A stretch of 64,000 bases of DNA. It comes from Antedon mediterranea. Its lineage: Eukaryota > Animalia > Echinodermata. The stretch is from contig NC_092671.1 in the NCBI RefSeq assembly GCF_964355755.1, positions 13,268,001 through 13,332,000 of the forward strand, in the 5' to 3' direction. How positions within the stretch are numbered: position 1 is the first letter of the stretch; each line of letters begins with the position of its first letter. The notes below the pieces were generated by a model. It made no database searches and had not been told where the DNA came from. It saw nothing but the letters and a program-made list of their open reading frames with translations. Shown piece by piece: positions 11,771 to 64,000 of the stretch. Both the position numbers and the translations under genes were made by a program.

Positions 11771-11809
11771 GGTAGGCCCTAAATGGTTCAAACATCCTGG
11801 CGTCGTGTG

Positions 11810-13137: not shown

Positions 13138-13142
<5 letters not shown>

Positions 13143-22245: not shown

Positions 22246-22469
22246 AGGCCAACATAGCCTAAATAAATACGTGAACGTGATTGGTTGAAATTGCATCACA
22301 TGACTACTGCTGCGAGGATCGTAAATGGTATATTTTCTCGAGTACGATGATATTGACGGAGTAAATTGCGCGTGTCCCGATCATTAAACATATAACATCC
22401 AGTAAATTCTCGAGGATTTTGATATTGACTATGTAATTTGCATGTGGCAACACTCGCGTTTGGCGATAA

Positions 22470-25329: not shown

Positions 25330-25700
25330 ATATGAGAGGACATGTATGTGTGGGACTTGCTGGATTTACACCAATTGATCAGGGTCATTGAGCATGGTAT
25401 CATTGGAATAACACAAATTAATGATTTCATCAGAGCTGGCAAATCTAGTTAACATTTAAAGAGAGATGATATCCCGGTTAATGAAGAATGCTGCAATTCG
25501 CACAAAGGTGTTTGTTGGCCATGGCATGATGAAATTGGACAGAAAATGTTTGAGGCATTGGTAAAAGTCTTGTAGAAGGCAAACTGTCTATATGGGATCC
25601 TAAAAAAAAGACGAATATTGGCAAAAAAATATATATGACGGTGAATACAGGTGACAAACTTATCAAAGTAAAAGAAGACTCCTATAGAGATTATTTGCCG
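25330..25700 (+). pseudogene. Decayed Academ-like transposase fragment
   Basis: Broken frames give GIIGITQ, DEIGQKMFEALVK, EGKLSIWDPKKK and GDKLIKVKED. I recall these as resembling large invertebrate Academ-type transposases; not verified by search. Confidence 0.6.
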
Positions 25701-27944: not shown

Positions 27945-28319
27945 ATGGTCAAGGAACTGTTTTGATCATGCATGTATGTATCTTAAAATGTACAGCATAT
28001 TTTATGACCTTCACGTTTATGTAATTCTTATGGCAATTTGTATGGATACTGACCCCGCAACAGCATTGGGCTTCAATCCTCTTTGAATGCTCGCTGTATT
28101 CACACTATCTGCTCCTAAAATAGTAGTAAGAAAATTATAAAGTGAAAAACAAACTTTCATTTGTTATTTTAGTTCATTGAAGATGAAAATGTAATTGGAA
28201 CTTAATATATCTGTATAATTCCAGAGAAAAATGTAACTAAACATACCTTTCTGTCTGATTGATACAGATTTATAACTCTTCTCATCAATTGTTTCTCTGC
28301 AAATGATGCAGTACTGCAT
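27945..28319 (-). pseudogene. Spliced 5' remnant of the outer element's transposase gene
   Basis: Exon 28319-28247 MQYCIICRETIDEKSYKSVSIRQK(G), a GT-AG intron at 28246-28115, then GADSVNTASIQRGLKPNAVAG and, after a 1-nt frameshift, SIHTNCHKNYIN. CxxC...HxxC zinc-finger-like pattern. Confidence 0.6.
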
Positions 28320-30358: not shown

Positions 30359-33300
30359 AGGATATTACAACTGCCGAAGAAGAAACAACGGAAAATTCGA
30401 CAACTTTGTTTATTACCTCAACAACAGATATAACAACACAAACATCAACGACATTGTTTGACTCAACAACAGGTGTGGATATAACAACACAGCAAGATTC
30501 CACAACAGATGACGTAACTACTGATGAAGGTATAACAACACAAACTTCAACCACTTTGTTTGACTCAACAACAGGTTTGGATATAACAACACAGCAAGAT
30601 TCTACAACAGTTGACGTTACTACTGATGAAGGTATAACAACACAAGCCTCAACCACATTGTTTGACTCAACAACAGGTTTAGATATAACAACACAGCAAG
30701 ATTCTACAACAGTTGACGTAACTACTGATGAAGTACAAGCTTCAACCACATTGTTTGACTCAACAACAGGTTTGGATATAACAACACAGCAAGATTCTAC
30801 AACAGTTGACGTAACTACTGATGAAGGTATAACAACACAAGCTTCAACCACATTGTTTGACTCAACAACTGGTTTGGATATAACAACACAACAAGATTCT
30901 AAAACAGTTGACGTAACTACTGATGAAGGTATAACAACTCAAGCCTCAACCACTTTGTTTGACTCAACAACAGGTGTGGATATAACAAGACAGAAAGGTT
31001 CTACAACAGTTGACGTTACTACTGATGAAGGTATAACAACACAAGCTTCAACCACTTTGTTTGACTCAACAACAGGTTTGGATATAACAACACAGCAAGA
31101 TTCCACAACAGATGACGTAACTACTGATGAAGGTCAAACAACACAAGCTTCAACGACTTTTTTTGACTCAACAACAGGTTTGGATAAAACAACACAGCAA
31201 GATTCTACAACAGTTGACGTAACTACTGATGAAGGTATAACAACACAAGCTTCAACCACTTTGTTTGACTCAACAACAGGTGTGGATATAACAACACAGC
31301 AAGATTCTACAACAGTTGACGTAACTACTGATGGAGTACAAGCTTCAACCACATTGTTTGACTCAACAACAGGTTTGGATATAACAACACAGCAAGAATC
31401 TACAACAGTTGACGTAACTACCGATGAAGGTATAACAACACAAGCTTCAACCACATTGTTTGACTCAACAACTGGTTTGGATATAAAAACACAGCAAGAT
31501 TCTACAACAGTTGACGTAACTACTGATAAAGGTATAACAACTCAAGCCTCAACCACATTGTTTGACTCAACAACTGGTTTGGATATAACACCACAGCAAG
31601 ATTCTACAACAGTTGACGTAACTACTGATGAAGGTATAACAACTCAAGCCTCAACCACTTTGTTTGACTCAACAACAGGTGTGGATATAACAACACAGCA
31701 ACAATCTACAACGGTTGACGTTACTACTGATGAAGGTATAACAACACAAGCTTCAACCACTTTGTTTGACTCAACAACAGGTGTGGATATAACAACACAG
31801 CAAGATTCCACAACAGTTGACGTTACTACTGATGAAGGTATAACAACACAAGCTTCAACCACTTTGTTTGACTCAACAACAGGTTTGGATATAACAACAC
31901 AGAAAGATTCTACAACATTTGACGTTACTACTGATGAAGGTATAACAACACAAGCTTCAACCACTTTGTTTGACTCAACAACAGGTGTGGATATAACAAC
32001 ACAGCAAGATTCTACAACAGTTGACGTAACTACTGATGAAGTACAAGCTTCAACCACATTGTTTGACTCAACAACAGGTTTGGATATAACAACACAGCAA
32101 GATTCTACAACAGTTGACGTAACTACTGATGAAGGTATAACAACACAAGCTTCAACTACATTGTTTGACTCAACAACTGGTTTGGATATAACAACACAGC
32201 AAGATTCTACAACAGTTGACGTAACTACTGATGAAGGTATAACAACTCAAGCCTCAACCACATTGTTTGACTCAACAACTGGTTTGGATATAACAACACA
32301 GCAAGATTCTACAACAGTTGACGTAACTACTGATGAAGGTATAAGAACTCAAGACTCAACCACTTTGTTTGACTCAACAACAGGTGTGGATATAACAACA
32401 CAGCAAGAATCTACAACAGTTGACGTTACTACTGATGAAGGTATAACAACACAAGCTTCAACCACTTTGTTTGACTCAACAACAGGTGTGGATATAACAA
32501 CACAGCAAGATTCTACAACAGTTGACGTTACTACTGATAAAGGTATAACAACACAAGATTCAACCACTTTGTTTGACTCAACAACAGGTTTGGATATAAC
32601 AAAACAGAAAGATTCTACAACATTTGACGTTACTACTGATGAAGGTATAACAACTCAAGCCTCAACCACATTGTTTGACTCAACAACTGGTTTGGATATA
32701 ACACCACAGCAAGATTCTACAACAGTTGACGTAACTACTGATGAAGGTATAACAACTCAAGCCTCAACCACTTTGTTTGACTCAACAACAGGTGTGGATA
32801 TAACAACACAGCAACAATCTACAACGGTTGACGTTACTACTGATGAAGGTATAACAACACAAGCTTCAACCACTTTGTTTGACTCAACAACAGGTGTGGA
32901 TATAACAACACAGCAAGATTCCACAGTAGTTGACGTTACTACTGATGAAGGTATAACAACACATGCTTCAACCACTTTGTTTGACTCAACAACAGGTTTG
33001 GATATAACAACACAGAAAGATTCTACAACATTTGACGTTACTACTGATGAAGGTATAACAACACAAGCTTCAACCACTTTGTTTGACTCAACAACAGGTG
33101 TGGATATAACAACACAGCAAGATTCTACAACAGTTGACGTAACTACTGATGAAGTACAAGCTTCAACCACATTGTTTGACTCAACAACAGGTTTGGATAT
33201 AACAATACAGCAAGATTCTACAACAGTTGACGTAACTACTGATGAAGGTATAACAACACAAGCTTCAACTACATTGTTTGACTCAACAACTGGTTTGGAT

Positions 33301-36300
33301 ATAACAACACAGCAAGATTCTACAACAGTTGACGTAACTACTGATGAAGGTATAACAACTCAAGCCTCAACCACATTGTTTGACTCAACAACTGGTTTGG
33401 ATATAACAACACAGCAAGATTCTACAACAGTTGACGTAACTACTGATGAAGGTATAACAACTCAAGCCTCAACCACTTTGTTTGACTCAACAACAGGTGT
33501 GGATATAACAACACAGCAAGAATCTACAACAGTTGACGTTACTACTGATGAAGGTATAACAACACAAGCTTCAACCACTTTGTTTGACTCAACAACAGGT
33601 GTGGATATAACAACACAGCAAGATTCTACAACAGTTGACGTTACTACTGATAAAGGTATAACAACACAAGATTCAACCACTTTGTTTGACTCAACAACAG
33701 GTTTGGATATAACAACACAGAAAGATTCAACAACATTTGACGTTACTACTGATGAAGGTATAACAACTCAAGCCTCAACCACATTGTTTGACTCAACAAC
33801 TGGTTTGGATATAACACCACAGCAAGATTCTACAACAGTTGACGTAACTACTGATGAAGGTATAACAACTCAAGCCTCAACCACTTTGTTTGACTCAACA
33901 ACAGGTGTGGATATAACAACACAGCAACAATCTACAACGGTTGACGTTACTACTGATGAAGGTATAACAACACAAGCTTCAACCACTTTGTTTGACTCAA
34001 CAACAGGTGTGGATATAACAACACAGCAAGATTCCACAACAGTTGACGTTACTACTGATGAAGGTATAACAACACATGCTTCAACCACTTTGTTTGACTC
34101 AACAACAGGTTTGGATATAACAACACAGAAAGATTCTACAACATTTGACGTTACTACTGATGAAGGTATAACAACACAAGCTTCAACCACTTTGTTTGAC
34201 TCAACAACAGGTGTGGATATAACAACACAGCAAGATTCTACAACAGTTGACGTAACTACTGATGAAGTACAAGCTTCAACCACATTGTTTGACTCAACAA
34301 CAGGTTTGGATATAACAACACAGCAAGATTCTACAACGGTTGACGTAACTACTGATGAAGGTATAACAACACAAGCTTCAACTACATTGTTTGACTCAAC
34401 AACTGGTTTGGATATAACAACACAGCAAGATTCTACAACAGTTGACGTAACTACTGATGAAGGTATAACAACTCAAGCTTCAACCACATTGTTTGACTCA
34501 ACAACAGGTTTGGATATAACAACACAGCAAGATTCTACAACGGTTGACGTAACTACTGATGAAGGTATAACAACACAAGCTTCAACTACATTGTTTGACT
34601 CAACAACTGGTTTGGATATAACAACAGAGCAAGATTCTACAACAGTTGACGTAACTACTGATGAAGGTTTAACAACTCAAGCCTCAACGACTTTGTTTGA
34701 CTCAACAACAGGTGTGGATATAACAACACAGCAAGAATCTACAACAGTTGACGTTACTACTGATGAAGGTATAACAACACAAGCTTCAACCACTTTGTTT
34801 GACTCAACAACAGGTGTGGATATAACAACACAGCAAGATTCTACAACAGTTGACGTTACTACTGATGAAGGTATAACAACACAAGCTTCAACCACTTTGT
34901 TTGACTCAACAACAGGTTTGGATATAACAACACAGAAAGATTCTACAACATTTGACGTTACTACTGATGAAGGTATAACAACACAAGCTTCAACCACTTT
35001 GTTTGACTCAACAACAGGTGTGGATATAACAACACAGCAAGATTCTACAACAGTTGACGTAACTACTGATGAAGTACAAGCTTCAACCACATTGTTTGAC
35101 TCAACAACAGGTTTGGATATAACAACACAGCAAGATTCTACAACAGTTGACGTAACTACTGATGAAGGTATAACAACTCAAGCCTCAACCACTTTGTTTG
35201 ACTCAACAACAGGTGTGGATATAACAACACAGCAAGAATCTACAACAGTTGACGTTACTACTGATGAAGGTATAACAACACAAGCTTCAACCACTTTGTT
35301 TGACTCAACAACAGGTGTGGATATAACAACACAGCAAGATTCTACAACAGTTGACGTAACTACTGATGAAGTACAAGCTTCAACCACATTGTTTGACTCA
35401 ACAACAGGTTTGGATATAACAACACAGCAAGATTCTACAACAGTTGACGTAACTACTGATGAAGGTATAACAACACAAGCTTCAACTACATTGTTTGACT
35501 CAACAACTGGTTTGGATATAACAACACAGCAAGATTCTACAACAGTTGACGTAACTACTGATGAAGGTATAACAACTCAAGCCTCAACCACATTGTTTGA
35601 CTCAACAACTGGTTTGGATATAACAACACAGCAAGATTCTACAACAGTTGACGTAACTACAGATGAAGGTATAACAACACAAGCTTCAACTACATTGTTT
35701 GACTCAACAACTGGTTTGGATATAACAACACAGCAAGATTCTACAACAGTTGACGTTACTACTGATGAAGGTATAACAACACAAGCTTCAACCACTTTGT
35801 TTGACTCAACAACAGATGTGGATATAACAACACAGCAAGATTCTACAACAGTTGACGTAACTACTGATGAAGTACAAGCTTCAACCACATTGTTTGACTC
35901 AACAACAGGTTTGGATATAACAACACAGCAGGAATCTACAACAGTTGACGTTACTACTGATGAAGGTATAACAACACAAGCTTCAACCACTTTGTTTGAC
36001 TCAACAACAGGTGTGGATATAACAACACAGCAAGATTCTACAACAGTTGACGTTACTACTGATGAAGGTATAACAACACAAGCTTCAACCACTTTGTTTG
36101 ACTCAACAACAGGTTTGGATATAACAACACAGAAAGATTCTACAACATTTGACGTTACTACTGATGAAGGTATAACAACACAAGCTTCAACCACTTTGTT
36201 TGACTCAACAACAGGTGTGGATATAACAACACAGCAAGATTCTACAACAGTTGACGTAACTACTGATGAAGTACAAGCTTCAACCACATTGTTTGACTCA

Positions 36301-39300
36301 ACAACAGGTTTGGATATAACAACACAGCAAGATTCTACAACAGTTGACGTAACTACTGATGAAGGTATAACAACTCAAGCCTCAACCACTTTGTTTGACT
36401 CAACAACAGGTGTGGATATAACAACACAGCAAGAATCTACAACAGTTGACGTAACTACTGATGAAGGTATAACAACACAAGCTTCAACTACATTGTTTGA
36501 CTCAACAACTGGTTTGGATATAACAACACAGCAAGATTCTACAACAGTTGACGTTACTACTGATGAAGGTATAACAACACAAGCTTCAACCACTTTGTTT
36601 GACTCAACAACAGATGTGGATATAACAACACAGCAAGATTCTACAACAGTTGACGTAACTACTGATGAAGTACAAGCTTCAACCACATTGTTTGACTCAA
36701 CAACAGGTTTGGATATAACAACACAGCAGGAATCTACAACAGTTGACGTTACTACTGATGAAGGTATAACAACACAAGCTTCAACCACTTTGTTTGACTC
36801 AACAACAGGTGTGGATATAACAACACAGCAAGATTCTACAACAGTTGACGTTACTACTGATGAAGGTATAACAACACAAGCTTCAACCACTTTGTTTGAC
36901 TCAACAACAGGTTTGGATATAACAACACAGAAAGATTCTACAACATTTGACGTTACTACTGATGAAGGTATAACAACACAAGCTTCAACCACTTTGTTTG
37001 ACTCAACAACAGGTGTGGATATAACAACACAGCAAGATTCTACAACAGTTGACGTAACTACTGATGAAGTACAAGCTTCAACCACATTGTTTGACTCAAC
37101 AACAGGTTTGGATATAACAACACAGCAAGATTCTACAACAGTTGACGTAACTACTGATGAAGGTATAACAACTCAAGCCTCAACCACTTTGTTTGACTCA
37201 ACAACAGGTGTGGATATAACAACACAGCAAGAATCTACAACAGTTGACGTTACTACTGATGAAGGTATAACAACTCAAGCTTCAACCACTTTGTTTGACT
37301 CAACAACAGGTGTGGATATAACAACACAGCAAGATTCTACAACAGTTGACGTTACTACTGATGAAGATATAACAACACAAGCTTCAACCACTTTGTTTGA
37401 CTCAACAACAGGTTTGGATATAACAACACAGAAAGATTCTACAACATTTGACGTTACTACTGATGAAGGTATAACAACACAAGCTTCAACGACTTTGTTT
37501 GACTCAACAACAGGTGTGGATATAACAACACAGCAAGATTCTACAACAGTTGACGTAACTACTGATGAAGTACAAGCTTCAACCACATTGTTTGACTCAA
37601 CAACAGGTTTGGATATAACAACACAGCAAGATTCTACAACAGTTGACGTAACTACTGATGAAGGTATAACAACACAAGCTTCAACTACATTGTTTGACTC
37701 AACAACTGGTTTGGATATAACAACACAGCAAGATTCTACAACAGTTGACGTAACTACTGATGAAGGTATAACAACTCAAGCTTCAACCACATTGTTTGAC
37801 TCAACAACAGGTTTGGATATAACAACACAGCAAGATTCTACAACAGTTGACGTAACTACTGATGAAGGTATAACAACTCAAGCCTCAACCACTTTGTTTG
37901 ACTCAACAACAGGTGTGGATATAACAACACAGCAAGAATCTACAACAGTTGACGTTACTACTGATGAAGGTATAACAACACAAGCTACAACCACTTTGTT
38001 TGACTCAACAACAGGTGTGGATATAACAACACAGCAAGATTCTACAACAGTTGACGTTACTACTGATGAAGATATAACAACACAAGCTTCAACCACTTTG
38101 TTTGACTCAACAACAGGTTTGGATATAACAACACAGAAAGATTCTACAACATTTGACGTTACTACTGATGAAGGTATAACAACACAAGCTTCAACGACTT
38201 TGTTTGACTCAACAACAGGTGTGGATATAACAACACAGCAAGATTCTACAACAGTTGACGTAACTACTGATGAAGTACAAGCTTCAACCACATTGTTTGA
38301 CTCAACAACAGGTTTGGATATAACAACACAGCAAGATTCTACAACAGTTGACGTAACTACTGATGAAGGTATAACAACACAAGCTTCAACTACATTGTTT
38401 GACTCAACAACTGGTTTGGATATAACAACACAGCAAGATTCTACAACAGTTGACGTAACTACTGATGAAGGTATAACAACTCAAGCCTCAACCACATTGT
38501 TTGACTCAACAACTGGTTTGGATATAACAACACAGCAAGATTCTACAACAGTTGACGTAACTACTGATGAAGGTATAACAACTCAAGCCTCAACCACTTT
38601 GTTTGACTCAACAACAGGTGTGGATATAACAACACAGCAAGAATCTACAACAGTTGACGTTACTACTGATGAAGGTATAACAACACAAGCTTCAACCACT
38701 TTGTTTGACTCAACAACAGGTGTGGATATAACAACACAGCAAGATTCTACAACAGTTGACGTTACTACTGATGAAGGTATAACAACACAAGCTTCAACCA
38801 CTTTGTTTGACTCAACAACAGGTTTGGATATAACAACACAGAAAGATTCTACAACATTTGACGTTACTACTGATGAAGGTATAACAACAAAAGCTTCAAC
38901 CACATTGTTTGACTCAACAAGAGGTTTAGATATAACAACACAGCAAGATTCTACAACAGTTGACGTTACTACTGATGAAGGTATAACAACACAAGCCTCA
39001 ACCACATTGTTTGATTCAACAAATGGTGTGGATATAACAACACAGCAAGAATCTACAACAGTTGACGTTACTACTGATGAAGGTATAACAACACAAGCTT
39101 CAACCACATTGTTTGACTCAACAACAGGTTTAGATATAACAACACAGCAAGATTCTACAACAGTTGACGTAACTACTGATGAAGTACAAGCTTCAACCAC
39201 ATTGTTTGACTCAACAACAGATTTGGATATAACAACACAGCAAGATTCTACAACAGTTGACGTAACTACTGATGAAGTACAAGCTTCAACCACATTGTTT

Positions 39301-42300
39301 GACTCAACAACAGGTTTGGATATAACAACACAGCAAGATTCTACAACAGTCGACGTAACTACTGATGAAGGTATAACAACTCAAGCCTCAACCACTTTGT
39401 TTGACTCAACAACAGGTGTGGATATAACAACACAGCAACAATCTACAACGGTTGACGTTACTACTGATGAAGGTATAACAACACAAGCTTCAACCACTTT
39501 GTTTGACTCAACAACAGGTGTGGATATAACAACACAGCAAGATTCCACAACAGTTGACGTTATTACTGATGAAGATATAACAACACAAGCTTCAACCACT
39601 TTGTTTGACTCAACAACAGGTTTGGATATAACAACACAGAAAGATTCTACAACATTTGACGTTACTACTGATGAAGGTATAACAACACAAGCTTCAACCA
39701 CTTTGTTTGACTCAACAACAGGTGTGGATATAACAACACAGCAAGATTCTACAACAGTTGACGTAACTACTGTTGAATTACAAGCTTCAACCACATTGTT
39801 TGACTCAACAACAGGTTTGGATATAACAACACAGCAAGATTCTACAACAGTTGACGTAACTACTGATGAAGGTATAACAACACAAGCTTCAACTACATTG
39901 TTTGACTCAACAACTGGTTTGGATATAACAACACAGCAAGATTCTACAACAGTTGACGTAACTACTGATGAAGGTATAACAACTCAAGCCTCAACCACAT
40001 TGTTTGACTCAACAACTGGTTTGGATATAACAACACAGCAAGATTCCACAACAGTTGAGGTAACTACTGATGAAGGTATAACAACTCAAGCCTCAACCAC
40101 TTTGTTTGACTCAACAACAGGTGTGGATATAACAACACAGCAAGAATCTACAACAGTTGACGTTACTACTGATGAAGGTATAACAACACAAGCTTCAACC
40201 ACTTTGTTTGACTCAACAACAGGTGTGGATATAACAACACAGCAAGATTCTACAACAGTTGACGTTACTACTGATGAAGGTATAACAACACAAGCTTCAA
40301 CCACTTTGTTTGACTCAACAACAGGTTTGGATATAACAACACAGAAAGATTCTACAACATTTGACGTTACTACTGATGAAGGTATAACAACACAAGCTTC
40401 AACCACATTGTTTGACTTAACAACAGGTTTAGATATAACAACACAGCAAGATTCTACAACAGTTGACGTTACTACTGATGAAGGTATAACAACACAAGCC
40501 TCAACCACATTGTTTGATTCAACAACAGGTTTGGATATAACAACACAGAAAGAGTCTACAACAGTTGACGTAACTACTGATGAAGGTATAACAACTCAAG
40601 CCTCAACTACATTGTTTGACTCAACAACAGGTTTAGATATAACAACACAGCAAGATTCTACAACAGTTGACGTAACTACTGATGAAGTACAAGCTTCAAC
40701 TACATTGTTTGACTCAACAACAGATTTGGATATAACAACACAGCAAGATTCTACAACAGTTGACGTAACTACTGATGAAGGTATAACAACACAAGTTTCA
40801 ACCACATTGTTTGACTCAACAACTGGTTTGGATATAACAACACAGCAAGATTCTACAACAGTTGACGTAACTACTGATGAAGGTATAACAACACAAGCTT
40901 CAACCACTTTGTTTGACGCAACAACAGGTGTGGATATAACAACACAGCAACAATCTACAACGGTTGACGTTACTACTGATGAAGGTATAACAACACAAGC
41001 TTCAACCACTTTGTTTGACTCAACAACAGGTGTGGATATAACAACACAGCAAGATTCCACAACAGTTGACGTTACTACTGATGAAAGTATAACAACACAA
41101 GCTTCAACCACTTTGTTTGACTCAACAACAGGTTTGGATATAACAACACAGAAAGATTCTACAACATTTGACGTTACTACTGATGAAGGTATAACAACAC
41201 AAGCTTCAACCACTTTGTTTGACTCAACAACAGGTGTGGATATAACAACACAGCAAGATTCTTCAACAGTTGACGTAACTACTGATGAAGTACAAGCTTC
41301 AACCACATTGTTTGACTCAACAACAGGTTTGGATATAACAACACAGCAAGATTCTACAACAGTTGACGTAACTACTGATGAAGTACAAGCTTCAACTACA
41401 TTGTTTGACTCAACAACAGATTTGGATATAACAACACAGCAAGATTCTACAACAGTTGACGTAACTACTGATGAAGGTATAAAAACACAAGCTTCAACCA
41501 CATTGTTTGACTCAACAACTGGTTTGGATATAACAACACAGCAAGATTCTACAACAGTTGACGTAACTACTGATGAAGGTATAACAACACAAGCTTCAAC
41601 CACTTTGTTTGACTCAACAACAGGTGTGGATATAACAACACAGCAACAATCTACAACGGTTGACGTTACTACTGATGAAGGTATAACAACACAAGCTTCA
41701 ACCACTTTGCTTGACTCAACAACAGGTGTGGATATAACAACACAGCAAGATTCCACAACAGTTGACGTTACTACTGATGAAGGTATAACAACTCAAGCTT
41801 CAACCACTTTGTTTGACTCAACAACAGGTGTGGATATAACAACACAGCAAGAATCTACAACAGTTGACGTAACTACTGATGAAGGTATAACAACACAAGC
41901 TTCAACTACATTGTTTGACTCAACAACTGGTTTGGATATAACAACACAGCAAGATTCTACAACAGTTGACGTAACTACTGATGAAGGTATAACAACTCAA
42001 GCCTCAACCACATTGTTTGACTCAACAACTGGTTTGGATATAACAACACAGCAAGATTCTACAAAAGTTGACGTAACTACTGATGAAGGTATAACAACTC
42101 AAGCCTCAACGACTTTGTTTGACTCAACAACAGGTGTGGATATAACAACACAGCAAGAATCTACAACAGTTGACGTTACTACTGATGAAGGTATAACAAC
42201 ACAAGCTTCAACCACATTGTTTGACTCAACAACAGATTTGGACATAACAACACAGCAAGATTCTACAACAGTTGACGTAACTACTGATGAAGTACAAGCT

Positions 42301-48300: not shown

Positions 48301-51300
48301 ACCACTTTGTTTGACTCAACAACAGGTTTGGATATAACAACACAGCAAGATTCTACAACAGTTGACGTTACTACTGATGAAGTTATAACAACACAAGCCT
48401 CAACCACATTGTTTGACTCAACAACAGGTTTAGATATAACAACACAGCAAGATTCTACAACAGTTGACGTTACTACTGATGAAGGTATAACAACACAAGC
48501 CTCAACCACATTGTTTGACTCAACAACAGGTTTAGATATAACAACACAGCAAGATTCTACAACAGTTGACGTAACTACTGATGAAGTACAAGCTTCAACC
48601 ACATTGTTTGACTCAACAACAGGTTTGGATATAACAACACAGCAAGATCCTACAACAGTTGACGTAACTACTGATGAAGGTATAACAACACAAGCTTCAA
48701 CCACATTGTTTGACTCAACAACTGGTTTGGATATAACAACACAGCAAGATTCTACAACAGTTGACGTAACTACTGATGAAGGTATAACAACTCAAGCCTC
48801 AACCACTTTGTTTGACTCAACAACAGGTGTGGATATAACAAGACAGAAAGATTCTACAACAGTTGACGTTACTACTGATGAAGGTATAACAACACAAGCT
48901 TCAACTACTTTGTTTGATTCAACAACAGGTTTGGATATAACAACACAGCAAGATTCCACAACAGATGACGTAACTACTGATGAAGGTCAAACAACACAAG
49001 CTTCAACGACTTTTTTTGACTTAACAACAGGTTTGGATAAAACAACACAGCAAGATTCTACAACAGTTGACGTTACTACTGATGAAGGTATAACAACACA
49101 AGCTTCAACCACTTTGTTTGACTCAACAACAGGTGTGGATATAACAACACAGCAAGATTCTACAACAGTTGACGTAACTACTGATGAAGTACAAGCTTCA
49201 ACCACATTGTTTGACTCAACAACAGGTTTGGATATAACAACACAGCAAGATTCTACAACAGTTGACGTAACTACTGATGGAGGTATAACAACTCAAGCCT
49301 CAACCACATTGTTTGACTCAACAACTGGTTTGGATATAACAACACAGCAAGATTCTACAACAGTTGACGTAACTACTGATGAAGGTATAACAACTCAAGC
49401 ATCAACCACTTTGTTTGACTCAACAACAGGTGTGGATATAACAACACAGCAAGAATCTACAACAGTTGACGTTACTACTGATGAAGGCATAACAACACAA
49501 GCTTCAACCACTTTGTTTGACTCAACAACAGGTGTGGATATAACAACACAGCAAGATTCTACAACAGTTGACGTAACTACTGATGAAGGTATAACAACTC
49601 AAGCCTCAACCACTTTGTTTGACTCAACAACAGGTGTGGATATAACAACACAGCAAGAATCTACAACAGTTGACGTTACTACTGATGAAGGTATAACAAA
49701 ACAAGCTTCAACCACTTTGTTTGACTCAACAACAGGTGTGGATATAACAACACAGCAAGATTCTACAACAGTTGAGGTTACTACTGATGAAGGTATAACA
49801 ACACAAGCTTCAACCACTTTGTTTGACTCAACAACAGGTTTGGGTATAACAACACAGCAAGATTCCACAACAGATGACGTAACTACTGATGAAGGTATAA
49901 CAACACAAACTTCTACCACTTTGTTTGACTCAACAACAGGTTTGGATATAACAACACAGCAAGATTCTACAACAGTTGACGTTACTACTGATGAAGGTAT
50001 AACAACACAAGCTTCAACCACTTTGTTTGACTCAACAACAGGTTTGGATATAACAACACAGCAAGATTCCACAACAGATGACGTAACTACTGATGAAGGT
50101 ATAACAACACAAGCCTCAACCACATTGTTTGACTCAACAACAGGTTTAGATATAACAACACAGCAAGATTCTACAACAGTTGACGTAACTACTGATGAAG
50201 GTATAACAACTCAAGCCTCAACCACTTTGTTTGACTCAACAACAGGTGTGGATATAACAAGACAGAAAGATTCTACAACAGTTGACGTAACTACTGATGA
50301 AGGTATAACAACTCAAGCATCAACCACTTTGTTTGACTCAACAACAGGTGTGAATATAACAACACAGCAAGAATCTACAACAGTTGACGTTACTACTGAT
50401 GAAGGTATAACAACACAAGCTTCAACCACTTTGTTTGACTCAACAACAGGTGTGGATATAACAACACAGCAAGATTCTACAATAGTTGACGTTACTACTG
50501 ATGAAGGTATAACAACACAAGCTTCAACCACTTTGTTTGACTCAACAACAGGTGTGGATATAACAACACAGCAAGATTCTACAACAGTTGACGTAACTAC
50601 TGATGAAGGTATAACAACTCAAGCCTCAACCACTTTGTTTGACTCAAAAACAGGTGTGGATATAACAACACAGCAAGAATCTACAACAGTTGACGTTACT
50701 ACTGATGAAGGTATAACAAAACAAGCTTCAACCACTTTGTTTGACTCAACAACAGGTGTGGATATAACAACACAGCAAGATTCTACAACAGTTGAGGTTA
50801 CTACTGATGAAGGTATAACAACACAAGCTTCAACCACTTTGTTTGACTCCACAACAGGTTTGGGTATAACAACACAGCAAGATTCCACAACAGATGACGT
50901 AACTACTGATGAAGGTATAACAACACAAACTTCTACCACTTTGTTTGACTCAACAACAGGTTTGGATATAACAACACAGCAAGATTCTACAGCAGTTGAC
51001 GTTACTACTGATGAAGGTATAACAACACAAGCTTCAACCACTTTGTTTGACTCAACAACAGGTTTGGATATAACAACACAGCAAGATTCCACAACAGATG
51101 ACGTAACTACTGATGAAGGTATAACAACACAAGCCTCAACCACATTGTTTGACTCAACAACAGGTTTAGATATAACAACACAGCAAGATTCTACAACAGT
51201 TGACGTAACTACTGATGAAGTACAAGCTTCAACCACATTGTTTGACTCAACAACAGGTTTGGATATAACAACACAGCAAGATCCTACAACAGTTGACGTA

Positions 51301-54300
51301 ACTACTGATGAAGGTATAACAACTCAAGCCTCAACCACTTTGTTTGACTCAACAACAGGTGTGTATATAACAAGACAGAAAGATTCTACAACAGTTGACG
51401 TTACTACTGATGAAGGTATAACAAGACAAGCTTCAACCACTTTGTTTGACTCAACAACAGGTTTGGATATAACAACACAGCAAGATTCCACAACAGATGA
51501 CGTAACTACTGATGAAGGTCAAACAACACAAGCTTCAACGACTTTTTTTGACTCAACAACAGGTTTGGATAAAACAACACAGCAAGATTCTACAAAAGTT
51601 GACGTTACTACTGATGAAGGTATAACAACACAAGCTTCAACCACTTTGTTTGACTCAACAACAGGTGTGGATATAACAACACAGCAAGATTCTACAACAG
51701 TTGACGAAACTACTGATGAAGTACAAGCTTCAACCACATTGTTTGACTCAACAACAGGTTTGGATATAACAACACAGCAAGATTCTACAACAGCTGACGT
51801 AACTACTGACGAAGGTATAACAACACAAGCTTCAACTACATTGTTTGACTCAACAACTGGTTTGGATATAACAACACAGCAAGATTCTACAACAGTTGAC
51901 GTAACTACTGATGAAGGTATACCAACTCAAGCCTCAACCACATTGTTTGACTCAACAACTGGTTTGGATATAACAACACAGCAAGATTCTACAACAGTTG
52001 ACGTAACTACTGATGAAGGTATAACAACTCAAGCATCAACCACTTTGTTTGACTCAACAACAGGTGTGGATATAACAATACAGCAAGAATCTACAACAGT
52101 TGACGTTACTACTGATGAAGGTATAACAACACAAGCTTCAACCACTTTGTTTGACTCAACAACAGGTGTGGATATAACAACACAGCAAGATTCTACAACA
52201 GTTGACGTAACTACTGATGAAGGTATAACAACACAAGCTTCAACCACTTTGTTTGACTCAACAACAGGTTTGGATATAACAACACAGAAAGATTCTACAA
52301 CATTTGACGTTACTACTGATGAAGGTATAACAACACAAGCTTCAACCACATTGTTGGACTCAACAACAGGTTTAGATATAACAACACAGCAAGATTCCAC
52401 AACAGATTACGTAACTACTGATGAAGGTATAACAACACAAACTTCTACCACATTGTTTGATTCGACAACAGGTTTGGATATAACAACACAGGAAGATTCT
52501 ACAACAGTTGACGTTACTACTGATGAAGGTATAACAACACAAGCTTCAACCACTTTGTTTGACTCAACAACAGGTTTGGATATAACAACACAGCAAGATT
52601 CCACAACAGATGACGTAACTACTGATGAAGGTATAACAACACAAACTTCTACCACATTGTTTGATTCGACAACAGGTTTGGATATAACAACACAGCAAGA
52701 TTCTACAACAGTTGACGTTACTACTGATGAAGGTATAACAACACAAGCTTCAACCACTTTGTTTGACTCAACAACAGGTTTGGATATAACAACACAGCAA
52801 GATTCCACAACAGATGACGTAACTACTGATGAAGGTATAACAACACAAACTTCTACCACTTTGTTTGACTCAACAACAGGTTTGGATATAACAACACAGC
52901 AAGATTCTACAACAGTTGACGTTACTACTGATGAAGGTATAACAACACAAGCCTCAACCACATTGTTTGACTCAACAACAGCTTTAGATATAACAACACA
53001 GCAAGATTCTACAACAGTTGACGTAACTACTAATGAAGTACAAGCTTCAACCACATTGTTTGACTCAACAACAGGTTTGGATATAACAACACAGCAAGAT
53101 TCTACAACAGTTGACGTAACTACTGATGAAGGTATAACAACACAAGCTTCAACCACATTGTTTGACTCAACAACTGGTTTGGATATAACAACACAGCAAG
53201 ATTCTACAACAGTTGACGTAACTACTGATGAAGGTATAACAACTCAAGCCTCAACCACTTTGTTTGACTCAACAACAGGTGTGGATATAACAAGACAGAA
53301 AGATTCTACAACAGTTGACGTTACTACTGATGAAGGTATAACAACACAAGCTTCAACAACTTTGTTTGACTCAACAGCAGGTTTGGATATAACAACACAG
53401 CAAGATTCCACAACAGATGACGTAACTACTGATGAAAGTCAAACAACACAAGCTTCAACGACTTTTTTTGACTCAACAACAGGTTTGGATAAAACAACAC
53501 AGCAAGATTCTACAACAGTTGACGTTACTACTGATGAAGGTATAACAACACAAGCTTCAACCACTTTGTTTGACTCAACAACAGGCGTGGATATAACAAC
53601 ACAGCAAGATTCTACAACAGTTGACGTAACTACTGATGAAGTACAAGCTTCAACCACATTGTTTGACTCAACAACAGGTTTGGATATAACAACACAGCAA
53701 GATTCTACAACAGCTGACAAAACTACTGATGAAGGTATAACAACACAAGCTTCAACTACATTGTTTGACTCAACAACTGGTTTGGATATAACAACACAGC
53801 AAGATTCTACAACAGTTGATGTCACTACTGATGAAGGTATAACAACACAAGCTTCAACTACATTGTTTGACTCAACAACTGGTTTGGATATGACAACACA
53901 GCAAGATTCTACAACAGTTGACGTTACTACTGATGAAGGTCAAACAACACAAGCTTCAACGACTTTTTTTGAATCAACAACAGGTTTGGATAAAACAACA
54001 CAGCAAGATTCTACAACAGTTGACGTTACTACTGATGAAGGTATAACAACACAAGCTTCAACCACTTTGTTTGACTCAACAACAGGTGTGGATATAACAA
54101 CACAGCAAGATTCTACAACAGTTGACGTAACTACTGATGAAGTACAAGCTTCAACCACATTGTTTGACTCAACAACAGGTTTGGATATAACAACACAGCA
54201 AGATTCTACAACAGTTGACGTAACTACTGATGAAGGTATAACAACACAAGCTTCAACCACATTTTTTGACTCAACAACTGGTTTGGATATAACAACACAG

Positions 54301-57300
54301 CAAGATTCTACAACAGTTGACGTAACTACTGATGAAGGTATAACAACTCAAGCCTCAACCACTTTGTTTGACTCAACAACAGGTGTGGATATAACAACAC
54401 AGCAAGAATCTACAACAGTTGACGTTACTACTGATGAAGGTATAACAACACAAGCTTCAACCACTTTGTTTGACTCAACAACAGGTTTGGATATAACAAC
54501 ACAGCAAGATTCTACAACAGTTGATGTCACTACTGATGAAGGTATAACAACTCAAGCCTCAACCACTTTGTTTGACTCAACAACAGGTGTGGATATAACA
54601 ACACAGCAAGAATCTACAACAGTTGACGTTACTACTGATGAAGGTATAACAACACAAGCTTCAACCACTTTGTTTGACTCAACAACAGGTGTGGATATAA
54701 CAACACAGCAAGATTCTACAACAGTTGACGTTACTACTGATGAAGGTATAACAACACAAGCTTCAACCACTTTGTTTGACTCAACAACAGGTTTGGATAT
54801 AACAACACAGAAAGATTCTACAACATTTGACGTTACTACTGATGAAGGTATAACAACACAAGCTTCAACCACTTTGTTTGACTCAACAACAGGTGTGGAT
54901 ATAACAACACAGCAAGATTCTACAACAGTTGACGTAACTACTGATGAAGTACAAGCTTCAACCACATTGTTTGACTCAACAACAGGTTTGGATATAACAA
55001 CACAGCAAGATTCTACAACAGTTGACGTAACTACTGATGAAGGTATAACAACACAAGCTTCAACTACATTGTTTGACTCAACAACTGGTTTGGATATAAC
55101 AACACAGCAAGATTCTACAACAGTTGACGTAACTACTGATGAAGGTATAACAACTCAAGCCTCAACCACATTGTTTGACTCAACAACTGCTTTGGATATA
55201 ACAACACAGCAAGATTCTACAACAGTTGACGTAACTACTGATGAAGGTATAACAACTCAAGCCTCAACCACTTTGTTTGACTCAACAACAGGTGTGGATA
55301 TAACAACACAGCAAGAATCTACAACAGTTGACGTTACTACTGATGAAGGTATAACAACACAAGCTTCAACGACTTTGTTTGACTCAACAACAGGTGTGGA
55401 TATAACAACACAGCAAGATTCTACAACAGTTGACGTTACTACTGATGAAGGTATAACAACACAAGCTTCAACCACTTTGTTTGACTCAACAACAGGTTTG
55501 GATATAACAACACAGAAATATTCTACAACATTTGACGTTACTACTGATGAAGGTATAACAACACAGGCTTCAACCACATTGTTTGACTCAACAACAGGTT
55601 TAGATATAACAACACAGAACGATTCTACAACAGTTGACGTTACTACTGATGAAGGTATAACAACACAAGCCTCAACCACATTGTTTGATTCAACAACAGG
55701 TTTGGATATATCAACACAGAAAGAGTCTACAACAGTTGACGTAACTACTGATGAAGGTATAACAACTCAAGCCTCAACTACATTGTTTGACTCAACGACA
55801 GGTTTAGATATAACAACACAGCAAGATTCTACAACAGTTGACGTAACTACTGATGAAGTACAAGCTTCAACCACATTGTTTGACTCAACAACAGATTTGG
55901 ATATAACAACACAGCAAGATTCTACAACAGTTGACGTAACTACTGATGAAGGTATAACAACACAAGCTTCAACCACATTGTTTGACTCAACAACTGGTTT
56001 GGATATAACAACACAGCAAGATTCTACAACAGTTGACGTAACTACTGATGAAGGTATAACAACACAAGCTTCAACCACTTTGTTTGACTCAACAACAGGT
56101 TTGGATATAACAACACAGCAAGATTCTACAACAGTTGACGTAACTACTGATGAAGGTATAACAACTCAAGCCTCAACCACTTTGTTTGACTCAACAACAG
56201 GTGTGGATATAACAACACAGCAAGAATCTACAACAGTTGACGTTACTACTGATGAAGGTATAACAAAACAAGCTTCAACCACTTTGTTTGACTCAACAAC
56301 AGGTGTGGATATAACAACACAGCAAGATTCTACAACAGTTGAGGTTACTACTGATGAAGGTATAACAACACAAGCTTCAACCACTTTGTTTGACTCAACA
56401 ACAGGTTTGGGTATAACAACACAGCAAGATTCCACAACAGATGACGTAACTACTGATGAAGGTATAACAACACAAACTTCTACCACTTTGTTTGACTCAA
56501 CAACAGGTTTGGATATAACAACACAGCAAGATTCTACAACAGTTGACGTTACTACTGATGAAGGTATAACAACACAAGCTTCAACCACTTTGTTTGACTC
56601 AACAACAGGTTTGGATATAACAACACAGCAAGATTCCACAACAGATGACGTAACTACTGATGAAGGTATAACAACACAAGCCTCAACCACATTGTTTGAC
56701 TCAACAACAGGTTTAGATATAACAACACAGCAAGATTCTACAACAGTTGACGTAACTACTGATGAAGGTATAACAACTCAAGCCTCAACCACTTTGTTTG
56801 ACTCAACAACAGGTGTGGATATAACAAGACAGAAAGATTCTACAACAGTTGACGTAACTACTGATGAAGGTATAACAACTCAAGCATCAACCACTTTGTT
56901 TGACTCAACAACAGGTGTGAATATAACAACACAGCAAGAATCTACAACAGTTGACGTTACTACTGATGAAGGTATAACAACACAAGCTTCAACCACTTTG
57001 TTTGACTCAACAACAGGTGTGGATATAACAACACAGCAAGATTCTACAATAGTTGACGTTACTACTGATGAAGGTATAACAACACAAGCTTCAACCACTT
57101 TGTTTGACTCAACAACAGGTGTGGATATAACAACACAGCAAGATTCTACAACAGTTGACGTAACTACTGATGAAGGTATAACAACTCAAGCCTCAACCAC
57201 TTTGTTTGACTCAAAAACAGGTGTGGATATAACAACACAGCAAGAATCTACAACAGTTGACGTTACTACTGATGAAGGTATAACAAAACAAGCTTCAACC

Positions 57301-60300
57301 ACTTTGTTTGACTCAACAACAGGTGTGGATATAACAACACAGCAAGATTCTACAACAGTTGAGGTTACTACTGATGAAGGTATAACAACACAAGCTTCAA
57401 CCACTTTGTTTGACTCCACAACAGGTTTGGGTATAACAACACAGCAAGATTCCACAACAGATGACGTAACTACTGATGAAGGTATAACAACACAAACTTC
57501 TACCACTTTGTTTGACTCAACAACAGGTTTGGATATAACAACACAGCAAGATTCTACAGCAGTTGACGTTACTACTGATGAAGGTATAACAACACAAGCT
57601 TCAACCACTTTGTTTGACTCAACAACAGGTTTGGATATAACAACACAGCAAGATTCCACAACAGATGACGTAACTACTGATGAAGGTATAACAACACAAG
57701 CCTCAAGCACATTGTTTGACTCAACAACAGGTTTAGATATAACAACACAGCAAGATTCTACAACAGTTGACGTAACTACTGATGAAGTACAAGCTTCAAC
57801 CACATTGTTTGACTCAACAACAGGTTTGGATATAACAACACAGCAAGATCCTACAACAGTTGACGTAACTACTGATGAAGGTATAACAACTCAAGCCTCA
57901 ACCACTTTGTTTGACTCAACAACAGGTGTGTATATAACAAGACAGAAAGATTCTACAACAGTTGACGTTACTACTGATGAAGGTATAACAAGACAAGCTT
58001 CAACCACTTTGTTTGACTCAACAACAGGTTTGGATATAACAACACAGCAAGATTCCACAACAGATGACGTAACTACTGATGAAGGTCAAACAACACAAGC
58101 TTCAACGACTTTTTTTGACTCAACAACAGGTTTGGATAAAACAACACAGCAAGATTCTACAACAGTTGACGTTACTACTGATGAAGGTATAACAACACAA
58201 GCTTCAACCACTTTGTTTGACTCAACAACAGGTGTGGATATAACAACACAGCAAGATTCTACAACAGTTGACGAAACTACTGATGAAGTACAAGCTTCAA
58301 CCACATTGTTTGACTCAACAACAGGTTTGGATATAACAACACAGCAAGATTCTACAACAGCTGACGTAACTACTGACGAAGGTATAACAACACAAGCTTC
58401 AACTACATTGTTTGACTCAACAACTGGTTTGGATATAACAACACAGCAAGATTCTACAACAGTTGACGTAACTACTGATGAAGGTATAACAACTCAAGCA
58501 TCAACCACTTTGTTTGACTCAACAACAGGTGTGGATATAACAATACAGCAAGAATCTACAACAGTTGACGTTACTACTGATGAAGGTATAACAACACAAG
58601 CTTCAACCACTTTGTTTGACTCAACAACAGGTGTGGATATAACAACACAGCAAGATTCTACAACAGTTGACGTAACTACTGATGAAGGTATAACAACACA
58701 AGCTTCAACCACTTTGTTTGACTCAACAACAGGTTTGGATATAACAACACAGAAAGATTCTACAACATTTGACGTTACTACTGATGAAGGTATAACAACA
58801 CAAGCTTCAACCACATTGTTTGACTCAACAACAGGTTTAGATATAACAACACAGCAAGATTCCACAACAGATTACGTAACTACTGATGAAGGTATAACAA
58901 CACAAACTTCTACCACATTGTTTGATTCGACAACAGGTTTGGATATAACAACACAGCAAGATTCTACAACAGTTGACGTTACTACTGATGAAGGTATAAC
59001 AACACAAGCTTCAACCACTTTGTTTGACTCAACAACAGGTTTGGATATAACAACACAGCAAGATTCCACAACAGATGACGTAACTACTGATGAAGGTATA
59101 ACAACACAAACTTCTACCACATTGTTTGATTCGACAACAGGTTTGGATATAACAACACAGCAAGATTCTACAACAGTTGACGTTACTACTGATGAAGGTA
59201 TAACAACACAAGCTTCAACCACTTTGTTTGACTCAACAACAGGTTTGGATATAACAACACAGCAAGATTCCACAACAGATGACGTAACTACTGATGAAGG
59301 TATAACAACACAAACTTCTACCACTTTGTTTGACTCAACAACAGGTTTGGATATAACAACACAGCAAGATTCTACAACAGTTGACGTTACTACTGATGAA
59401 GGTATAACAACACAAGCCTCAACCACATTGTTTGACTCAACAACAGCTTTAGATATAACAACACAGCAAGATTCTACAACAGTTGACGTAACTACTAATG
59501 AAGTACAAGCTTCAACCACATTGTTTGACTCAACAACAGGTTTGGATATAACAACACAGCAAGATTCTACAACAGTTGACGTAACTACTGATGAAGGTAT
59601 AACAACACAAGCTTCAACCACATTGTTTGACTCAACAACTGGTTTGGATATAACAACACAGCAAGATTCTACAACAGTTGACGTAACTACTGATGAAGGT
59701 ATAACAACTCAAGCCTCAACCACTTTGTTTGACTCAACAACAGGTGTGGATATAACAAGACAGAAAGATTCTACAACAGTTGACGTTACTACTGATGAAG
59801 GTATAACAACACAAGCTTCAACCACTTTGTTTGACTCAACAGCAGGTTTGGATATAACAACACAGCAAGATTCCACAACAGATGACGTAACTACTGATGA
59901 AGGTCAAACAACACAAGCTTCAACGACTTTTTTTGACTCAACAACAGGTTTGGATAAAACAACACAGCAAGATTCTACAACAGTTGACGTTACTACTGAT
60001 GAAGGTATAACAACACAAGCTTCAACCACTTTGTTTGACTCAACAACAGGCGTGGATATAACAACACAGCAAGATTCTACAACAGTTGACGTAACTACTG
60101 ATGAAGTACAAGCTTCAACCACATTGTTTGACTCAACAACAGGTTTGGATATAACAACACAGCAAGATTCTACAACAGCTGACGTAACTACTGATGAAGG
60201 TATAACAACACAAGCTTCAACTACATTGTTTGACTCAACAACTGGTTTGGATATAACAACACAGCAAGATTCTACAACAGTTGATGTCACTACTGATGAA

Positions 60301-63300
60301 GGTATAACAACACAACCTTCAACTACATTGTTTGACTCAACAACTGGTTTGGATATGACAACACAGCAAGATTCTACAACAGTTGACGTTACTACTGATG
60401 AAGGTCAAACAACACAAGCTTCAACGACTTTTTTTGAATCAACAACAGGTTTGGATAAAACAACACAGCAAGATTCTACAACAGTTGACGTTACTACTGA
60501 TGAAGGTATAACAACACAAGCTTCAACCACTTTGTTTGACTCAACAACAGGTGTGGATATAACAACACAGCAAGATTCTACAACAGTTGACGTAACTTCT
60601 GATGAAGTACAAGCTTCAACCACATTGTTTGACTCAACAACAGGTTTGGATATAACAACACAGCAAGATTCTACAACAGTTGACGTAACTACTGATGAAG
60701 GTATAACAACACAAGCTTCAACCACATTTTTTGACTCAACAACTGGTTTGGATATAACAACACAGCAAGATTCTACAACAGTTGACGTAACTACTGATGA
60801 AGGTATAACAACTCAAGCCTCAACCACTTTGTTTGACTCAACAACAGGTGTGGATATAACAACACAGCAAGAATCTACAACAGTTGACGTTACTACTGAT
60901 GAAGGTATAACAACACAAGCTTCAACCACTTTGTTTGACTCAACAACAGGTTTGGATATAACAACACAGCAAGATTCTACAACAGTTGATGTCACTACTG
61001 ATGAAGGTATAACAACTCAAGCCTCAACCACTTTGTTTGACTCAACAACAGGTGTGGATATAACAACACAGCAAGAATCTACAACAGTTGACGTTACTAC
61101 TGATGAAGGTATAACAACACAAGCTTCAACCACTTTGTTTGACTCAACAACAGGTGTGGATATAACAACACAGCAAGATTCTACAACAGTTGACGTTACT
61201 ACTGATGAAGGTATAACAACACAAGCTTCAACCACTTTGTTTGACTCAACAACAGGTTTGGATATAACAACACAGAAAGATTCTACAACATTTGACGTTA
61301 CTACTGATGAAGGTATAACAACACAAGCTTCAACCACTTTGTTTGACTCAACAACAGGTGTGGATATAACAACACAGCAAGATTCTACAACAGTTGACGT
61401 AACTACTGATGAAGTACAAGCTTCAACCACATTGTTTGACTCAACAACAGGTTTGGATATAACAACACAGCAAGATTCTACAACAGTTGACGTAACTACT
61501 GATGAAGGTATAACAACACAAGCTTCAACTACATTGTTTGACTCAACAACTGGTTTGGATATAACAACACAGCAAGATTCTACAACAGTTGACGTAACTA
61601 CTGATGAAGGTATAACAACTCAAGCCTCAACCACAATGTTTGACTCAACAACTGCTTTGGATATAACAACACAGCAAGATTCTACAACAGTTGACGTAAC
61701 TACTGATGAAGGTATAACAACTCAAGCCTCAACCACTTTGTTTGACTCAACAACAGGTGTGGATATAACAACACAGCAAGAATCTACAACAGTTGACGTT
61801 ACTACTGATGAAGGTATAACAACACAAGCTTCAACGACTTTGTTTGACTCAACAACAGGTGTGGATATAACAACACAGCAAGATTCTACAACAGTTGACG
61901 TTACTACTGATGAAGGTATAACAACACAAGCTTCAACCACTTTGTTTGACTCAACAACAGGTTTGGATATAACAACACAGAAATATTCTACAACATTTGA
62001 CGTTACTACTGATGAAGGTATAACAACACAGGCTTCAACCACATTGTTTGACTCAACAACAGGTTTAGATATAACAACACAGAACGATTCTACAACAGTT
62101 GACGTTACTACTGATGAAGGTATAACAACACAAGCCTCAACCACATTGTTTGATTCAACAACAGGTTTGGATATATCAACACAGAAAGAGTCTACAACAG
62201 TTGACGTAACTACTGATGAAGGTATAACAACTCAAGCCTCAACTACATTGTTTGACTCAACGACAGGTTTAGATATAACAACACAGCAAGATTCTACAAC
62301 AGTTTACGTAACTACTGATGAAGTACAAGCTTCAACCACATTGTTTGACTCAACAACAGATTTGGATATAACAACACAGCAAGATTCTACAACAGTTGAC
62401 GTAACTACTGATGAAGGTATAACAACACAAGCTTCAACCACATTGTTTGACTCAACAACTGGTTTGGATATAACAACACAGCAAGATTCTACAACAGTTG
62501 ACGTAACTACTGATGAAGGTATAACAACACAAGCTTCAACCACTTTGTTTGACTCAACAACAGGTTTGGATATAACAACACAGCACGATTCCACAACAGA
62601 TGACGTAACTCCTGATGAAGGTCAAACAACACAAGCTTCAACGACTTTTTTTGACTCAACAACAGGTTTGGATAAAACAACACAGCTAGATTCTACAACA
62701 GTTGACGTTACTACTGATGAAGGTATAACAACACAAGCTTCAACAACTTTGTTTGACTCAACAACAGGTTTGGATATAACAACACAGCAAGATTCTACAA
62801 CAGTTGACGTTACTACTGATGAAGGTATAACAACACAAGCTTCAACCACTTTGTTTGACTCAACAACAGGTTTGGATAAAACAACACAGCAAGATTCTAC
62901 AACAGTTGACGTTACTACTGATGAAGGTATAACAACACAAGCCTCAACAGCTTTGTTTGACTCAACAACAGGTTTGGATATAACAACACAGCAAGATTCT
63001 ACAACAGTTGACGTAACTACTGATGAAGGTATTACAACACAAGCCTCAACCACTTTGTTTGACTCAACAACAGGTTTGGATAGTTCAACAGGTTTGGATA
63101 TAACAACACAGCAAGATTCTACAACAGTTGACGTAACTACTGATGAAGGTATAACAACACAAGCTTCAACCACTTTGTTTGACTCAACAACAGGTTTTGA
63201 TATAACAACACAGCAAGATTCTACAACCGTTGACGTAACTACTGATGAAGGTCAAACAACACAAGCTTCAACGACTTTTTTTTACTCAACAACAGGTTTG

Positions 63301-64000
63301 GATAAAACAACACAGCAAGATTCTAAAACAGTTGACGTTACTACTGATGATGGTATAACTTCACAAGCTTCAACATCTTTGTTTGACTCAACAACAAGTT
63401 TGGATATAACAATACAGCAAGATTCTACAACAGTTGACGTAACTACCGATGAAGGTATAACAACACAAACTTCAACCACTTTCTTTGACTCAACAACAGG
63501 TTTGGATATAACAACACAGCAAGATTCTACAACAGTTGACATAACTACTGACGAAGGTATTACAACACAAGCTTCAACTACTTTGTTTGACTCAACAACA
63601 GGTTTGGATATAACAACACAGCAAGATTCTACAACAGTTGACGTTACTGCTGATGAAGGTATAACAACACACGCCTCAACAACTTTGTTTGATTCAACAA
63701 CAGGTTTGGATATAACAACACAGCCAGATTCTACAACATTTGACGTTACTACTGATGAAGGTATAACAACACAAGCTTCAACCACTTTGTTTGACTCAAC
63801 AACAGGTTTGGATATAACAACACAGCAATATTCTACAACAGTTGACGTTACTACTGATGAAGGTATAACAAAACAAGCTTCAACCACATTTTTTGACTCA
63901 ACAACAGGTGTGGATATAACAACACAGCAAGATTCTACAACATTTGACGTTACTATTGATGAAGGTATAACAACACAAGCCTCAACCACATATTTTGATT
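30359..64000 (+). CDS. Giant single coding exon (>33.6 kb, >11,200 codons, runs off the window) of a Thr/Ser/Asp-rich mucin-like tandem-repeat protein (gene B)
   Basis: Acceptor aatttcAG| at 30357-30358. Frame +1 starts DITTAEEETTENSTTLF and is still frame +1 at 63961 (EGITTQASTTYFD). I found no stop codon, and the ORF track lists no closed ORF in this frame despite in-frame ATG/TTG/GTG. All indels seen are multiples of 3. Confidence 0.93.
30430..64000 (+). repeat. Coding tandem repeat, ~330-340 units of 102 bp (34 aa) and 93 bp (31 aa), with higher-order repeats
   Basis: Consensus GACTCAACAACAGGT(G/T)TGGATATAACAACACAGCAAGATTCTACAACAGTTGACGT(A/T)ACTACTGATGAAGGTATAACAACACAAGCTTCAACCAC(T/A)TTGTTT. 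In the short variant GITT is replaced by V. Unit count estimated from length. Confidence 0.98.

Follow-up and report, generated by a model that had tools for sequence, protein, structure and literature searches.

A proline-free, threonine-rich reading frame exceeding 11,200 codons in the echinoderm Antedon mediterranea, a probable tandem-repeat exon of a mucin-related protein

Introduction

Exon 2 of the human mucin genes MUC3A, MUC3B and MUC12 measures 15,873, 39,267 and 32,428 bp, respectively, in T2T-CHM13 (PMC9578598), and MUC12 alleles encoding up to 23,080 amino acids have been described (PMC13345508). Retention of T and S across the repeats of mucins has been described as well (PMC9417175), and in Drosophila the Mur proteins have been set out as a class that takes in Ser/Thr-rich, proline-free repeats (PMC2515642). 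Very large secreted products with central repeats and O-glycosylation are also described from a spider (AgSp1, with 42,270 coding bases; PMC6553539) and from a flatworm (Mlig-ap2, with 14,794 residues; PMC6410801).

Here we describe a tandem array in the genome of Antedon mediterranea, based on a window of 64,000 nucleotides (contig NC_092671.1, positions 13,268,001 to 13,332,000), the whole stretch of DNA that was analysed. An earlier note on this DNA had pointed to a single coding exon running from position 30359 to the window edge. New here are a predicted, phase-matched signal-peptide exon, a predicted opposite-facing gene of similar build, and an entry into and in-frame exit from the array in public contigs.

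Results

A tandem-repeat search returned one array with a period of 102, 333.2 copies and 91% matches at 30429-63989 (Table 1). Among its 332 complete units, 278 encode 34 amino acids, 50 encode 31, two encode 35, and one each encodes 33 and 40; at the DNA level 166 of the 332 are distinct. TT pairs recur every 5-6 residues (1,772 of 1,889 spacings) and each unit carries six acidic residues. Such an array would have grown, and been homogenised, by unequal crossing-over of whole units and multi-unit blocks.

Table 1. Coordinates, strand and character of the features described in the window
Feature	Position	Strand	Description
Predicted exon 2 of the neighbour gene	1593..1814	-	222 bases, phase 1-1, 33% Thr, 16% Glu, no Pro/Cys
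Predicted exon 1 of the divergent neighbour gene	8853..8925	-	24 codons plus 1 base, signal-peptide-like, phase-1 donor GAG|GTAAGT
Predicted exon 1 of the array gene	12771..12870	+	ATG in good context, 33 codons plus 1 base
Putative intron 1, 17.5 kb	12871..30358	+	GT at 12871, AG at 30357-58
Non-repeat start of the putative giant exon	30359..30428	+	~23 Thr/Glu-rich codons, one N-glycosylation sequon
Coding tandem array	30429..64000	+	102-base units, 333 in all, of 34 aa (31 aa in 50)
Recent internal duplication, ~6.6 kb	49456..62611	+	26 differences, one unit lost between copies
Array edge	62446..64000	+	last 13 scored units less homogenised

In a six-frame count, frame +1 contained no stop between 30274 and 63999, and the other five frames contained 810, 1334, 821, 691 and 88 stops after position 30300. 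Exact translation of 30361-63999 gives 11,213 codons and a computed mass of 1,176,116 Da (1.18 MDa), which bears out both the claim that the frame stays open for 11,213 codons to the window edge and the claim of a Thr-rich repeat polypeptide of more than 1.1 MDa; the same translation contains neither the in-frame stops nor the frameshifts that the earlier note had named as evidence against its own reading. The product is 34.5% Thr, 14.6% Asp, 9.0% Ser and 8.7% Gln, with Asp and Glu together making up 18% and a net charge of -0.17 per residue. Ser and Thr together account for 43.4% of residues, reaching at least 40% in all 223 of the 100-residue segments scored, while proline is limited to at most one per segment of that length (14 in 11,213 residues, 0.1%) and Cys and Trp are absent. 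A sequence scan of the polypeptide found no Ser-Gly sites and therefore no place for classic glycosaminoglycan attachment. Predicted cleavage by trypsin yields just 85 pieces, of which 22 have at most 40 residues.

The frame was also said to begin at a clean acceptor. An AG is indeed present at 30357-58, opening an exon at 30359 in phase 1, but on a generic matrix uncalibrated for this genome this acceptor scores only at the 78th percentile among 1,425 upstream AGs, so that "clean" was generous wording. What exact translation demonstrates is an uninterrupted open frame; that it corresponds to one single spliced exon, and that it is spliced and expressed at all, we infer. A leucine run at 30286-30303, considered as a signal peptide, was rejected because it is a TTA microsatellite with no in-frame Met. 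The + strand of 30429-64000 lacks both AATAAA and ATTAAA, which occur at ~3.5 per kb upstream; this absence would spare a long exon early cleavage and may merely reflect the sequence of the unit.

Several lines of evidence suggest that the frame is maintained by selection. First, relative to the majority unit, the 278 full units display 118 of 296 possible single changes that do not make a stop (87 of 218 replacement and 31 of 78 silent) and none of the 10 that do (Fisher p 0.008). A simulation using the observed mutation spectrum yielded a mean of 4.5 stops and a probability of 0.002 of seeing none, and a second count (328 units, 30 shared codons) gave a probability of 0.001, the expectation across both counts being 4.5-4.9 stops; variants within a homogenising array are non-independent. 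The antisense frames of the same array DNA gained 3 of 16, 7 of 18 and 7 of 21 possible stops. The observation that point variants are abundant and yet create no stop, made by eye in the earlier note, thus stands on exact counting. Second, all four unit-length variant classes differ by whole codons. Third, across 328 of the 332 units and 30 shared codons, piN/piS is 0.29 (bootstrap 0.13-0.69), and the ratio of non-synonymous to synonymous variants falls from 48:14 for those present in one or two units to 9:10 for those present in at least ten (p 0.02). When the test is restricted to young variants (67, with 2.6 stops expected), the deficit is borderline (P 0.048).

The pattern of replacement also differs among residues. 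Amino-acid change per cell is 0.8% for Ser and 1.8% for Thr, compared with 9.3% for hydrophobic residues, and none of the ten common replacements falls on a Thr codon, though Thr codons hold 72 of the 218 possible replacements. In three public DNA runs, none of 26 listed variant rows creates a stop, and listed indels keep the frame in three of three cases in array contigs versus one of 12 in the flank. Taken together, the stop deficit, the frame-keeping unit lengths, the piN/piS value and the conserved Thr and Ser columns uphold the proposal of a coding array under purifying selection. The frame looks protected, with stops and frameshifts purged from an array of more than 11,200 codons, and in this way a single haplotype of such an array can reveal selection against stops.

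Upstream of the array, predicted exon 1 (Table 1) was the only + strand ATG-to-GT phase-1 exon with a hydrophobic core in 1-30358. Its product is signal-peptide-like as judged by sequence features rather than by a dedicated predictor, with a basic stretch, a VLLLLLIC core and a T-S-A end, and its phase-1 donor reads CAG|GTAAAT. None of 60 Markov-simulated regions gave such a candidate, under thresholds chosen after the candidate had appeared. Since its phase equals that of the acceptor at 30359, the two would be joined across a first intron of 17.5 kb; the phase match is what links them, and together these elements make a plausible full 5' gene model for the array gene. A crude scan between exon 1 and the array found no + strand phase 1-1 internal exon, such as might encode the N-terminal von Willebrand D domains of a gel-forming mucin. 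A Pfam scan that covered three + strand ORFs of the intron region gave no match, and Rfam gave no matches in 1-31000.

Contigs from all four public runs cover DNA of the putative intron, which holds LINE fragments and a polymorphic insertion of 3.47 kb. The insertion (22971-26442) has short terminal inverted repeats and multi-copy depth, its empty allele is seen as a joint in four of four runs, and by its sequence characters it is a polymorphic DNA-transposon-like element. LINE-like reverse-transcriptase fragments were recognised by eye at 14745-15353 (+), which had no Pfam match, and at ~17870-19270 (-). On the minus strand at ~27900-29300, small segments with Cys/His motifs and good splice sites are interrupted by a frameshift, and contigs show other copies of them; judged by eye, they may be the remnant of a DNA-transposon gene. 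Tandem repeats are present at 21813-22245 (135 bases, 3.4 copies) and at 11673-11770 (24 bases, 4.1 copies).

The two predicted minus-strand exons, the first of which lies 3.8 kb from exon 1 of the array gene, suggest a divergent gene of similar build. The second of them was the top-scoring internal exon in two exon scans. When the predicted products of the two genes were compared for homology, the only match was compositional (E 0.026), and there was no alignment between their signal peptides. The 3.8 kb between both start codons (8925-12771) may hold a shared two-way control region, and a TATA-like word lies ~180 bases before the + strand ATG. A broken LINE at 2634-8023 (-), comprising ORF1 (with an esterase-like domain and zinc knuckle), endonuclease and reverse transcriptase, with relatives of up to 51% identity, sits in the putative first intron of the neighbour gene. 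Such LINE remains, together with the GT-AG structure, are what an animal genome would show.

To find entries into and exits from the array, contigs of three public runs (X1, X3 and X4) were placed on two array units. In X3 and X4, the non-repeat stretch preceding the array is the single long 5' loose end of the array contigs, and in each of these runs one contig leaves a degenerate unit in frame, at a codon boundary, into 10 open non-repeat codons reading GEVVMTSDNT, which are absent from the window. Contigs of X1 had neither of these loose ends, so that entry and exit were both seen in two of the three runs. With a single long entry and a single in-frame exit, the array looks like a single-locus array. 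Within the window, nearest-neighbour distance is 2.46 in the last 13 scored units versus 0.07-0.80 elsewhere; as these units are far less homogenised we take them to mark the array edge. The array therefore probably ends shortly past the window and, from the edge and the contig exit together, the exon is likely to be ~34 kb or slightly more.

Searches of 7,985 candidates with lengths of 701-2,000 residues and of 4,011 with lengths of 5,500-17,500 residues found no homologue. Lengths of 2,000-5,500 were covered by a HMMER search alone, which returned nine matches of 23-32% identity among 1.84 billion representatives, all to unrelated repeats such as ankyrin and MAP4. Two Pfam matches to the repeat were dropped, as no stretch passed, and in the literature searched we found no mention of three unit motifs.

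Discussion

Our best reading of the locus is a lineage-specific mucin-related protein with Ser/Thr repeats that lack proline. The array is probably exon 2 of a protein of this kind, secreted or surface-bound, that would form an O-glycosylated, polyanionic bottlebrush. We infer secretion, glycosylation and role from composition, from the pattern of selection and from established mucin biology. The signal peptide encoded by predicted exon 1 would direct the chain into the secretory route, where Thr and Ser (43% of residues), including the conserved Thr pairs, would become densely O-glycosylated. The O-glycans, together with the six acidic residues of each unit, would hold the chain extended and hydrated, as a cation-binding bottlebrush of mucus or of a surface coat, and the C-terminus, beyond the window, would set whether it is anchored or polymerised. 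The PTS definition of mucins asks for coding tandem repeats over a third of the chain, for high Ser+Thr and for proline within the repeats, along with a signal peptide and dense O-glycosylation; here there are 333 units in one frame and 43.4% Ser+Thr, but proline is confined to the 14 residues counted above. The chain does possess the feature that defines the Mur class as described in PMC2515642, namely at least four Ser/Thr-rich repeats without proline.

An unlikely alternative, although the one that survives best, is that the protein is made but its units fold as a two-sided beta-solenoid in which each coil is one unit. The product would be a stiff rod, or a fibre like a functional amyloid, whose Thr and Asp ladders could bind ions or mineral. 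Coils of a solenoid are spaced by 0.48 nm, and 333 of them would span ~160 nm. For the best two AlphaFold2 models pLDDT is 82 and 94, and each of them aligns to solenoids of the SufB/SufD type (Z 16.0, rmsd 2.6, 200 aligned; Z 13.3, rmsd 2.7, 175 aligned). Predicted turns coincide with, or lie next to, the two Gly positions and the 3-residue deletion, and the unit has beta-prone residues and no proline. An initial interpretation, in which model 1 was an antiparallel meander and the folds of the two models differed, was rejected because the structural alignments show both to be solenoids. Against a solenoid, pLDDT exceeds 80 in only three of ten AlphaFold2 models and is below 60 in seven, and a Foldseek search at an E cut-off of 0.001 gave no match for one of the two best models and a single match for the other, TM-scores being low. 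The most variable columns are the hydrophobic ones, which should form a conserved core ladder: 9.3% of their cells are changed, frequently with Asp, Lys or Gln as the new residue, and among 278 units Asp replaces Val in 26, Gln replaces Ile in 12 and Lys replaces Ile in 11. A solenoid would also have to stack the six acidic residues of each coil upon those of the next. Human MUC22 is a proline-poor mucin whose unit differs from that of the array. Its repeat too was folded confidently as a beta-solenoid by AlphaFold2, to the scepticism of the authors, and confident solenoids were likewise obtained for 32 of 78 (41%) random repeats, as reported in PMC11795689. The fuller proposal built on these models is of a secreted megadalton protein, encoded by one exon that passes for satellite DNA, in which over 330 coils would make up one beta-solenoid instead of a bottlebrush; as a stiff, acidic rod or functional amyloid with ordered Thr and Asp ladders it would serve in fibres, in adhesives or in the templating of mineral. 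This strikes us as somewhat less probable again; if true, the fold would make this a new kind of giant fibre protein.

It is also improbable, and a little more so, that the gene is real but most of its transcripts do not carry the array as one exon, the spliceosome removing whole units in frame. Every unit contains ACAG|GT, unit lengths are multiples of three, and 107 units carry a donor-like CAG|GTGTGG that scores 6.3, with in-array acceptors scoring up to 6.4, on generic matrices uncalibrated for this genome; in-frame internal splicing is therefore possible. Stops are missing over the whole 33.6 kb, however, and a routinely skipped interior would not need that.

We give very little weight to the proposal that the assembly has over-expanded the array, for example by joining two haplotypes in tandem, and that the true exon is shorter. 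A 6.6-kb block is present twice at 99.6% identity and 31% of the array's 300-base words are non-unique, but 26 differences and the loss of one unit separate the two block copies, and the frame would be longer than 27 kb even with the block removed. Rough depth in X1, which comes from another sample, corresponds to only 54-107 units, whereas for the sample matching the window it corresponds to 182-364 units (X4) and 835-1,670 units (X3); such depth is no copy number, and the range of 54 to 1,670 units over the three runs serves as an order-of-magnitude check. Least credible of all is a non-coding satellite or recently silenced gene, in which the frame would be open only through recent copying of a stop-free unit, for although homogenisation is fast and the replacement ratio of young variants is neutral (48:14 versus 193:67 possible), changes in the array are not indifferent to reading frame (118 distinct variants without a stop, frame-keeping indels, low piN/piS) and the array has a single acceptor-bearing entry, a single in-frame exit and a signal-peptide exon in phase.

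With the array read as the repeat exon of a mucin-related protein, how does it compare with the systems already described? The earlier note held it to be larger than known coding exons, a claim that fails on human MUC3B, whose exon 2 at 39,267 bp exceeds 33.6 kb; the array is very large but is no size record. PKZILLA-2 was dropped as a single-exon comparator, since the preprint 10.1101/2024.01.29.577497 gives it 12 exons. AgSp1 and Mlig-ap2 are invertebrate secretions of comparable size. AgSp1 resembles the array in its central repeats and, as predicted for the array protein, is an O-glycosylated secretion, but as described in PMC6553539 its coding sequence is divided between two similar exons, is rich in Gly and Pro and has spidroin ends. 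Mlig-ap2, also repetitive and O-glycosylated, differs in having 255- and 221-residue repeats and von Willebrand domains in the account given in PMC6410801.

The lineage-specific mucins described in PMC9417175 share with the array exonic repeats that retain their T and S, as well as more than 20% T+S, and they are secreted as the array protein would be, although those described there are mammalian and derived from proline-rich precursors. Some Drosophila Mur proteins are described as having no conserved domain (PMC2515642); the Mur proteins form a compositional class rather than a family, and the searches above found no homologue of the array.

The predicted gene build matches that of human MUC3A, MUC3B and MUC12, which as described in PMC9578598 have a short 5' part followed by one giant Thr/Ser-rich tandem-repeat exon 2. 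Those genes also adjoin one another, are similarly built, and were missed or cut by older assemblies (PMC9578598; PMC13345508). They differ, in the descriptions available, in having proline in their repeats as well as SEA, transmembrane and cytoplasmic ends, whereas the array unit has no proline and is strongly acidic, the C-terminus lies beyond the window, and no sequence relation was found. The array gene offers a plausible full 5' gene model for a megadalton protein that lacks annotation and that masking of repeats would probably conceal, and it extends the few known exons above 30 kb by one that is acidic and free of proline.
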